From: an uncultured Pseudomonadota bacterium
GTDB lineage: Bacteria > Pseudomonadota > Alphaproteobacteria > JACZXZ01
Assembly: GCA_963749075.1 (NCBI GenBank)
Contig: CAVVLJ010000021.1
Location: 576,001 to 640,000, forward strand
Reading direction: 5' to 3'
DNA length: 64,000 nt
How positions within the stretch are numbered: the stretch's first letter is position 1; the number at the start of each line of letters is the position of its first letter. Positions 41,829 through 42,009 of this stretch are shown piece by piece. The notes below the pieces were generated by a model, which saw nothing but the letters and a program-made list of their open reading frames with translations, was not told where the DNA came from and made no database searches. Made by a program: the position numbers and the translations under genes.

Positions 41829-41946
41829 AAAATATCTCGGTCCCCTCCTTGAATTTTTCGCGGTGGGTTCCTAAATTTTGGAGGTCGCGGCCAAAGGATC
41901 GATAGACATCATTACAGCAAAACTTGCAACTTGACCCGACCGGCCC

Positions 41947-42009
41947 CGTGGATTGAAACGCTGTGATGATACCTATGGATCACGCCTGCGGGCGAGAAAG
42001 CCCGCAGGC
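41947..42009 (+). ncRNA. Solitary crRNA-like unit (handle, 22-nt guide, hairpin)
   Basis: CGTGGATTGAAAC is identical to the array repeat 3' end. Guide 41960-41981 matches the minus strand of 41897-41918 at 18/22. A 10-bp hairpin follows at 41984-42009. Confidence 0.8.

Follow-up and report, generated by a model that had tools for sequence, protein, structure and literature searches.

What lies in the 462 nucleotides (nt) between cas3 and cas5c in the type I-C CRISPR locus of an uncultured alphaproteobacterium (Pseudomonadota; lineage JACZXZ01)? The stretch in which we addressed this question, referred to here as the window, comprises 64,000 nt of assembly GCA_963749075.1 (contig CAVVLJ010000021.1, forward-strand positions 576,001 to 640,000), and coordinates are those of the window unless another region is named. 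Inside the gap, on the strand of the cas genes, we found a compact element (41947-42009) that joins the end of a CRISPR repeat to a short guide and a hairpin, and whose guide matches a site a short distance upstream. What the sequences show directly is how the element is built, that its target is unique, that its mismatches bear the type I signature, and that the same design turns up in further type I-C loci. Our analysis argues that the element is probably a solitary repeat unit (SRU) of the I-C system, encoding a CRISPR RNA (crRNA)-like regulatory RNA (crlRNA) of the CreR/crlRNA class that functions as a Cascade-guided autorepressor of the cas5c operon. A blank gap between cas3 and cas5c in the CRISPR locus of a soil bacterium can be annotated in this way as a probable self-regulator of the interference complex.

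A repeat-derived guide and its target

The element begins with an exact copy of the last 13 nt of the array repeat (41947-41959; 13 of 13 positions), the sole such copy outside the array in the window, and its final 11 nt (41949-41959, plus strand), identical to the repeat 3' end, constitute the 5' handle. A search of the window for the terminal 12 nt of the repeat with at most one mismatch returned 65 sites, namely 64 in the array and one at 41948-41959, where shuffled sequences predict 0.14. Elsewhere in the genome, the handle has five copies at one mismatch, which by a rough estimate that was not computed is fewer than expected by chance. The sequence in front of the handle (41928-41948, plus strand) is a pseudo-repeat, the degenerate remainder of a repeat, with 10 of 21 positions still identical to it. 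A handle preserved at 13 of 13 positions beside a flank that has decayed to this degree is what would be expected if the Cascade-bound part alone had been kept.

The handle is followed by a pseudo-spacer of 24 nt (41960-41983, plus strand), whose first 22 nt (41960-41981) are the guide, and by a 3' hairpin (41984-42009, plus strand) in which 41984-41993 pairs with 42000-42009 in 10 perfect pairs around a 6-nt loop. This hairpin starts 24 nt after the handle and folds markedly better than shuffled sequence (z score -5; none of 200 shuffles as good); no T run lies behind it, and a terminator scan called no terminator. If an RNA started at 41949 and ended in the hairpin loop (41994-41999), its predicted length would be 46-51 nt, a range that brackets the 48-50 nt published for I-C crlRNAs. 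The stretch GATCGAA, 10 nt past the hairpin (42020-42026), may be what is left of a second repeat. The intergenic region had no DNA relatives in 40 further genomes from its genus, family or class, in 160 fetched Cas5c loci or elsewhere in the genome, and phage and plasmid records yielded nothing beyond one 36-nt chance match (E value 0.4).

The target (protospacer) of the guide lies on the minus strand at 41897-41918 and agrees with it at 18 of 22 positions, with mismatches at guide positions 6, 12, 13 and 18. The pairing sets in precisely at base 1 of the guide and reaches base 22, and the position of the protospacer-adjacent motif (PAM; 41919-41921) reads TTT on the minus strand (AAA on the plus strand), with a further T at 41922. 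Across both strands of the 5,488,800-bp genome, this target is the sole site within five mismatches of the guide, while seven other sites have six. In type I complexes, every sixth guide base is flipped out. Among the 18 remaining positions (excluding 6, 12 and 18), the target matches at 17, and no other site in the whole genome except the guide itself reaches 15; a full 10-of-10 seed next to a TTN PAM is likewise found in the genome at the target alone. One 12-nt seed match on another contig is flanked by CTT and within chance expectation. The earlier note on this DNA, made from its letters alone, had described the copied repeat end, the hairpin and the guide with its mismatched, TTT-flanked target, and these observations held throughout.

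Could such a pair arise by coincidence, or represent the inverted ends of a small mobile element? Taken by itself, the arrangement is a 22-nt inverted repeat with a 41-nt spacer and nothing beyond. However, analytic estimates that assume equal base frequencies put the expected number of sites with at least 17 of 18 non-flipped matches and a TTN PAM at about 3e-7 within 1500 nt on either side and at about 0.009 genome-wide. The genome holds just one copy of the unit, so mobile-element ends were rejected; this and the chance figures together exclude both possibilities, to which we assign a negligible probability, and the PAM, register and mismatch pattern correspond to those of 23 related pairs described below. 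The distribution of the mismatches is itself unusual: that 6, 12 and 18 should all be among four mismatches in 22 positions has a probability of 0.0026.

Recurrence of the design in other type I-C loci

We collected loci around Cas5c homologues from a genome collection and from metagenomes, 80 each. In the 153 loci that offered at least 200 nt upstream of cas5c, and in the window, we scanned 1.5 kb of this upstream sequence. A handle-like motif was defined as a 10-mer with one mismatch allowed, the next 22 nt were compared with every site in the region, and each comparison received as its score the matches counted at positions 1-5, 7-11 and 13-17 until a second mismatch was reached. The scan produced 83 handle-like motifs in 62 loci, and their best-match scores are bimodal, with 59 at 5-10 and 24 at 11-15. 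The PAM separates the two groups sharply: 23 of the 24 high scorers carry TTC and one, the window, carries TTT, while the 59 low scorers include no TTC and a single TTT. Of the 153 other Cas5c-linked regions, 23 thus combined a handle-like motif with a guide that agrees, starting at position 1, with a nearby TTC-flanked site. A second scan dispensed with the handle and covered the first 81 regions (L002-L081 and the window), allowing any guide start on either strand and requiring TTC. It returned 29 pairs, nine of them preceded by a handle-like 12-mer that in six cases is exactly GTGGAT[TC]GAAA[CT].

The freedom of every sixth position is shared by these pairs. Positions 6, 12 and 18 match in only 4, 5 and 6 of 22 unique comparator pairs, that is, at the level of chance, and these positions had not been used in the selection; the positions neighbouring them match in 17-22 of the 22, and pairing fades past approximately position 17. 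This pattern is the footprint of a type I complex. An identical distribution to that of the window occurs in L108 and L109, which share one sequence: their 22-nt pairing (target 1209-1230, guide from 1413 of the scanned region) is mismatched at 6, 12, 13 and 18 and is accompanied by a stem and a TTC PAM. Guide-target covariation in homologous I-C loci, which the earlier note had proposed as a check, was seen in one lineage, where position 8 of guide and target reads A/A in L134, G/G in L130 and A/G in L047, a compensatory change. In these three loci the unit is oriented opposite to cas5c, the target lies 81 nt upstream of the handle, and the footprint begins 16 nt after a good -10 hexamer, which is a consensus match and not a mapped promoter.

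Other features recur as well. A GC-rich hairpin lies 3' of the guide in all 22 comparators, its main stem starting some 22-34 nt after the handle by our own reading of the folds, and a stem whose last pair is at most 2 nt from the handle is present in 18. The targets are mostly located right after the cas3 stop codon and, by simple consensus scoring, on or next to promoter-like hexamers; in seven of the 22 (L009, L034, L046, L056, L110, L124 and L126), the start of a TTGAC-type hexamer falls within -4 to +12 nt of the footprint end. The order of guide and target is not fixed in the class, because it is reversed in L074 and L155, where the unit stands upstream: the guide hairpin is followed there by a T-rich run and then by a TTC-flanked target on a promoter-like site before cas5c.

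The relative strand of guide and target bears on a further explanation, according to which the two 22-nt arms only form a long hairpin in the RNA of the cas3 3' region and cas5c leader, for example for processing or stability, and the repeat fragment is incidental. The RNA from 41885 to 42012 does fold with its arms paired (-51 kcal/mol, z score -4.3; none of 200 shuffles as good), and the mismatch at position 6 would be a G-U pair in RNA. Such a hairpin gives no meaning to mismatches at 6, 12 and 18, however, nor does it account for the start of the pairing at the first base after the handle or for the correctly placed PAM, and Rfam contributes no family for 41700-42400 at E values up to 1. 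Moreover, the target is on the guide's own strand in 16 of the 24 pairs and cannot pair with the guide in RNA, so that an RNA hairpin cannot be the common function. We therefore regard a structure that acts in cis only as highly improbable.

In two of the loci nearest to the window by Cas5c, L121 (2408-2500; 73% identity) and L083 (584-676; 67% identity), we observed a complete stemmed repeat followed after 7 nt by a truncated, degenerate repeat. The short cas3-cas5c gap of these two loci contains neither a spacer-length guide nor a target, and the remnant is a solitary repeat of another kind.

Proposed mechanism of autorepression

With the element probably acting as a Cascade-guided autorepressor, a sequence of events can be proposed, every step of which, from transcription to repression, we infer. 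Transcription on the plus strand would run across the element and give rise to an RNA of about 46-51 nt: the 11-nt handle first, then the pseudo-spacer of 24 nt, and last the 5' half of the 3' hairpin. Once Cascade (Cas5c, Cas8c and Cas7) has taken it up, this RNA would direct the complex to the TTT-flanked site at 41897-41921, where a 22-bp R-loop would form that leaves bases 6, 12 and 18 flipped out, with no requirement for them to pair. Such an R-loop would be too short to license Cas3, and the bound complex would instead block RNA polymerase at the promoter that feeds both the RNA itself and cas5c-cas8c-cas7. The outcome would be a negative feedback on the level of Cascade, which loosens when other crRNAs titrate the complex or when anti-CRISPRs block it. 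On the safety of so short an R-loop, two observations come from other subtypes: in a type I-B system, 24-bp spacers are reported to have reduced expression to approximately 11% with neither interference nor priming, and in type I-F1 only full-length R-loops are reported to trigger Cas2/3.

Where would the complex meet the polymerase? We used our own, looser consensus scoring of promoter hexamers, which yields candidates and not mapped promoters. Candidate P1 (41849-41877, plus strand) combines a -35-like TTGAAT (41849-41854) with a -10-like TAAATT (41872-41877) across a 17-nt spacer; it has 8 of 12 consensus matches and falls under the threshold of the promoter scan tool. The Cascade footprint would begin 19 nt past its -10, similar to the L047 group, and could act as a roadblock. 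Candidate P2 (41924-41936, plus strand) consists of the -35-like hexamers TTGCAA (41924-41929) and TTGACC (41931-41936), which we list as one overlapping candidate; they lie 2 and 9 nt beyond the PAM, as in L009, L056 and L110, and Cascade could be seated directly against them.

How well the copy in the window fits the class

Several features set this copy apart from the other pairs and weigh against a working autorepressor. The most conspicuous is the one that the earlier note had rightly described as a lack of the repeat stem: directly 5' of the handle, the pseudo-repeat folds with no more than -3 kcal/mol (z score +1.14; 174 of 200 shuffles fold equally well), and the last paired base is 21 nt away from the handle, compared with 0-2 nt in 18 of the 22 comparators. 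Published I-C SRUs are defined, for the purpose of searching, by a pseudo-repeat palindrome and the seven conserved 3'-terminal repeat nucleotides, and Cas5c is described as cutting directly after the stem (bioRxiv 10.1101/2024.12.27.630466). The pseudo-repeat of the window differs from that class in having no palindrome, and processing of its 5' end by Cas5c is doubtful because the stem is missing. The promoters raise difficulties of a similar kind. The scan tool reported no promoter; P2 cannot supply an RNA with a handle, as its -10 would overlap the handle; and a transcript from P1 holds the complement of the guide and folds the guide away, with a minimum free energy of -51 kcal/mol for 41885-42012 versus -28.9 kcal/mol for 41949-42012.

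The geometry of the pair is unusual, too. Target and handle are separated by 27 nt, whereas the 21 other pairs whose target lies upstream have 51-224 nt in between, and the PAM is TTT where all 23 related pairs have TTC. The 22-nt pairing exceeds that of most relatives, and the avoidance of self-cleavage at this length rests on the analogy with types I-B and I-F1. Finally, the nearest Cas5c relatives (L121, L083, L125, L082 and L002; 67-73% identity) have no comparable guide.

These observations are what one would look for in a relic, that is, in a formerly working regulatory repeat unit that lost the stem of its pseudo-repeat and its leader when DNA between handle and targeted promoter was deleted; correct synthesis or processing of the RNA would have ceased, and the match would be an inherited trace. 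The -35-like hexamers stand directly between target and handle, where relatives have 51-224 nt; no stem adjoins the handle; the PAM is TTT and not TTC; pairing position 13 shows an additional mismatch; and the nearest Cas5c relatives are devoid of the element or keep a spacer-less repeat remnant only. Against this reading stand the handle, intact at 13 of 13 positions beside its decayed neighbourhood, the pairing positions, of which 17 of 18 still match whereas all three flipped-out ones differ, and the perfect 3' hairpin. The mismatch at position 13 recurs in L108 and L109, which share the entire 6/12/13/18 pattern in the company of a TTC PAM and a stem, and TTT does work as an I-C PAM: it is described as the second-best interference PAM of the Legionella pneumophila I-C system and as functional also in Bacillus halodurans (PMC5602111). 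The cas genes and the array look intact as well. On balance, we consider a relic unlikely, though plausible enough to be kept in mind.

A functional element could also do without the stem. In this variant, the copy in the window would work although it is stemless, its 5' end would be generated independently of Cas5c, and the handle would be exposed by the transcription start or by a host RNase. The guide would then be masked in cis by its complement 41 nt upstream, in an RNA stem of roughly 20 kcal/mol, until the RNA is cut or captured, and a Cascade assembled on the 24-nt pseudo-spacer would lack about two Cas7 subunits. Two array spacers next to the leader, 22 and 23 nt long (see below), might supply the same short-guide, binding-only complex. 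If true, this would add an RNA-level gate on top of the DNA-level feedback. We judge this particular variant to be improbable.

The CRISPR-Cas locus and its surroundings

The type I-C system of the window is complete and encoded on the plus strand, with cas3, cas5c, cas8c, cas7, cas4, cas1 and cas2 recognized by NCBIfam models. The HD nuclease and helicase gene cas3 (39099-41828; stop codon 41826-41828) scores 81.6 bits with the cas3_HD model (cut-off 43.45) and 102.1 bits with the cas3_core model, compared with a cut-off of 102.45. The genes for the effector complex, cas5c (42291-42956; Cas5c model, 175 bits), cas8c (42953-44833; Cas8c/Csd1, 450 bits) and cas7 (44837-45718; Cas7/Csd2, 392.5 bits), all score above their cut-offs and presumably form an operon under the control of the element. 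They are followed by the adaptation genes cas4 (45715-46362), cas1 (46373-47407) and cas2 (47409-47702).

Between the hairpin and cas5c lies a leader of 281 nt (42010-42290, plus strand), and the distance from guide start to cas5c, 331 nt, contrasts with 69-182 nt in eight of nine genome-collection SRU comparators (486 nt in the ninth, L074). It is conceivable that the guide represses a toxic small RNA or peptide in this stretch, so that loss of Cascade would poison the cell, as in CreTA addiction. CreT toxins act via rare codons. The length of the leader and its G+C content of 54-59%, which is low, would be in line with such a cargo, and so would an open reading frame of 55 codons (42030-42197, plus strand) that has several ATA codons and a ribosome-binding-site-like GGAG 9 nt before its ATG. 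This frame has no homologue among proteins of 30-97 amino acids, the length range searched, however, and the 281-nt region has no relatives. Many published elements of the CreR kind are, moreover, described as toxin-free (bioRxiv 10.1101/2023.03.10.532045). Because the target is upstream of the guide, the guide and any toxin would be repressed together, which is a poor fit for an antitoxin. An addiction module has, in our view, only a very slim probability.

The CRISPR array (47902-52128, plus strand) consists of 63 repeats and one degenerate terminal repeat, with 62 spacers between the 63. The repeat is 32 nt long; the 63 copies are within six mismatches of the first, and 62 of them are identical. 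At the leader end, the first two spacers reach just 22 and 23 nt (47934-47955 and 47988-48010) and are flanked by perfect repeats, and the remaining 60 measure 33-39 nt. The length of these two short spacers is similar to that of the 24-nt pseudo-spacer of the regulatory unit. Neither of them has a TTC- or TTT-flanked match in the genome. A 33-nt partial self-match involving spacer 5 was rejected because it is gapped and mismatched and has GAT as its flank. Long runs of G bracket the array, at approximately 47707-47724, right after the cas2 stop and at the start of the leader, and at approximately 52168-52193, past the last degenerate repeat; they may be genuine or an assembly artefact.

Housekeeping genes border the CRISPR locus on both sides. 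Upstream (31753-37036), the window encodes ATP synthase alpha/beta-family and epsilon-chain domains. Downstream (52308-55273), on the minus strand, are a gene of the N-formylglutamate amidohydrolase family and a gene with aldolase and short-chain dehydrogenase domains.

Comparison with known crRNA-like regulators

The survey indicates that cargo-less regulators of this design are common in I-C loci (23 of 153), their PAM being strictly TTC and their positions 6, 12 and 18 free. It fits the I-C reports of two papers, which are given mostly in supplementary material, and extends them in number; loci of the kind surveyed here may already figure in the published lists of I-C elements. The copy in the window is a natural edge case, which combines a stemless pseudo-repeat, a TTT PAM, 22-bp pairing and an anti-guide in cis, and could as such reveal which features are truly needed for loading and for repression without self-cleavage.

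With CreTA, the element of the window shares a crRNA-like RNA and the proposed Cascade-guided repression of a promoter by partial pairing without cleavage. It differs in that no toxin gene was identified in the window and in that the target is not situated between the guide gene and a separate toxin promoter. Regulatory mini-arrays, which consist of two repeat-like sequences, offer a second comparison. Among 1206 I-C loci, a repeat-like sequence is listed for 34% and a mini-array for 7% (Shmakov et al., PMC10120712, Table 1), and the cases described there in detail or tested belong to types I-E, I-F1, I-B and I-D (PMC10120712). A repeat-like sequence in a long cas intergenic region, a seed beside the better-conserved repeat, a putative PAM at the target and a mismatch at position 6 are common to these and to the window, whereas the second repeat of the window is at best represented by the hairpin and the GATCGAA vestige.

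CreR-guided autorepression has been shown in types I-B, I-E and V-A, and similar I-C elements are described as found by hand (Liu et al., bioRxiv 10.1101/2023.03.10.532045). Like CreR, the element is a degenerate CRISPR unit in the cas locus with a guide partly complementary to a site upstream of the effector genes and no toxin partner identified, and the proposed logic, autorepression that senses crRNA load and anti-CRISPRs, is the same. Unlike CreR, it has a stemless pseudo-repeat, and guide and target share one presumed transcript, with the target upstream.

The closest counterparts are the I-C SRUs just upstream of cas5c, which are described as making crlRNAs that control "CRISIS" defence genes; in Escherichia coli supplied with the matching Cascade, these crlRNAs are 48-50 nt long, begin with an 11-nt 5' handle and end in the hairpin loop (bioRxiv 10.1101/2024.12.27.630466). 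Their pairing spans 16 bp, leaves position 6 mismatched and adjoins a TTC PAM beside the -35; the promoter is repressed 21-fold in E. coli, and compensatory mutants restore repression (bioRxiv 10.1101/2024.12.27.630466). The window departs from this pattern in its TTT PAM (TTC or TTA in SRUs), its pairing of 22 instead of 16 bp, and its 281 nt before cas5c where SRUs have a short gap. In contrast to CRISIS loci, no non-cas cargo genes separate target and unit, which are 27 nt apart, and the controlled object would thus be the RNA itself together with the cas operon. With a design that recurs in the survey and published crlRNAs that repress about 21-fold, the CreA/CreR-type, Cascade-guided repressor proposed in the earlier note, directed at its own promoter region and possibly at the cas5c operon, is the best supported reading; the novelty that the note implied is not upheld, because the class is already in print as CreR and as I-C SRU/crlRNA. 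The window copy adds a member to this known class and no new category: like the published I-C SRUs, it lies between cas3 and cas5c on the cas strand, carries the 11-nt handle, a short pseudo-spacer and a hairpin, and pairs from position 1, with position 6 mismatched and a putative 5' PAM, to a target beside a -35-like hexamer.

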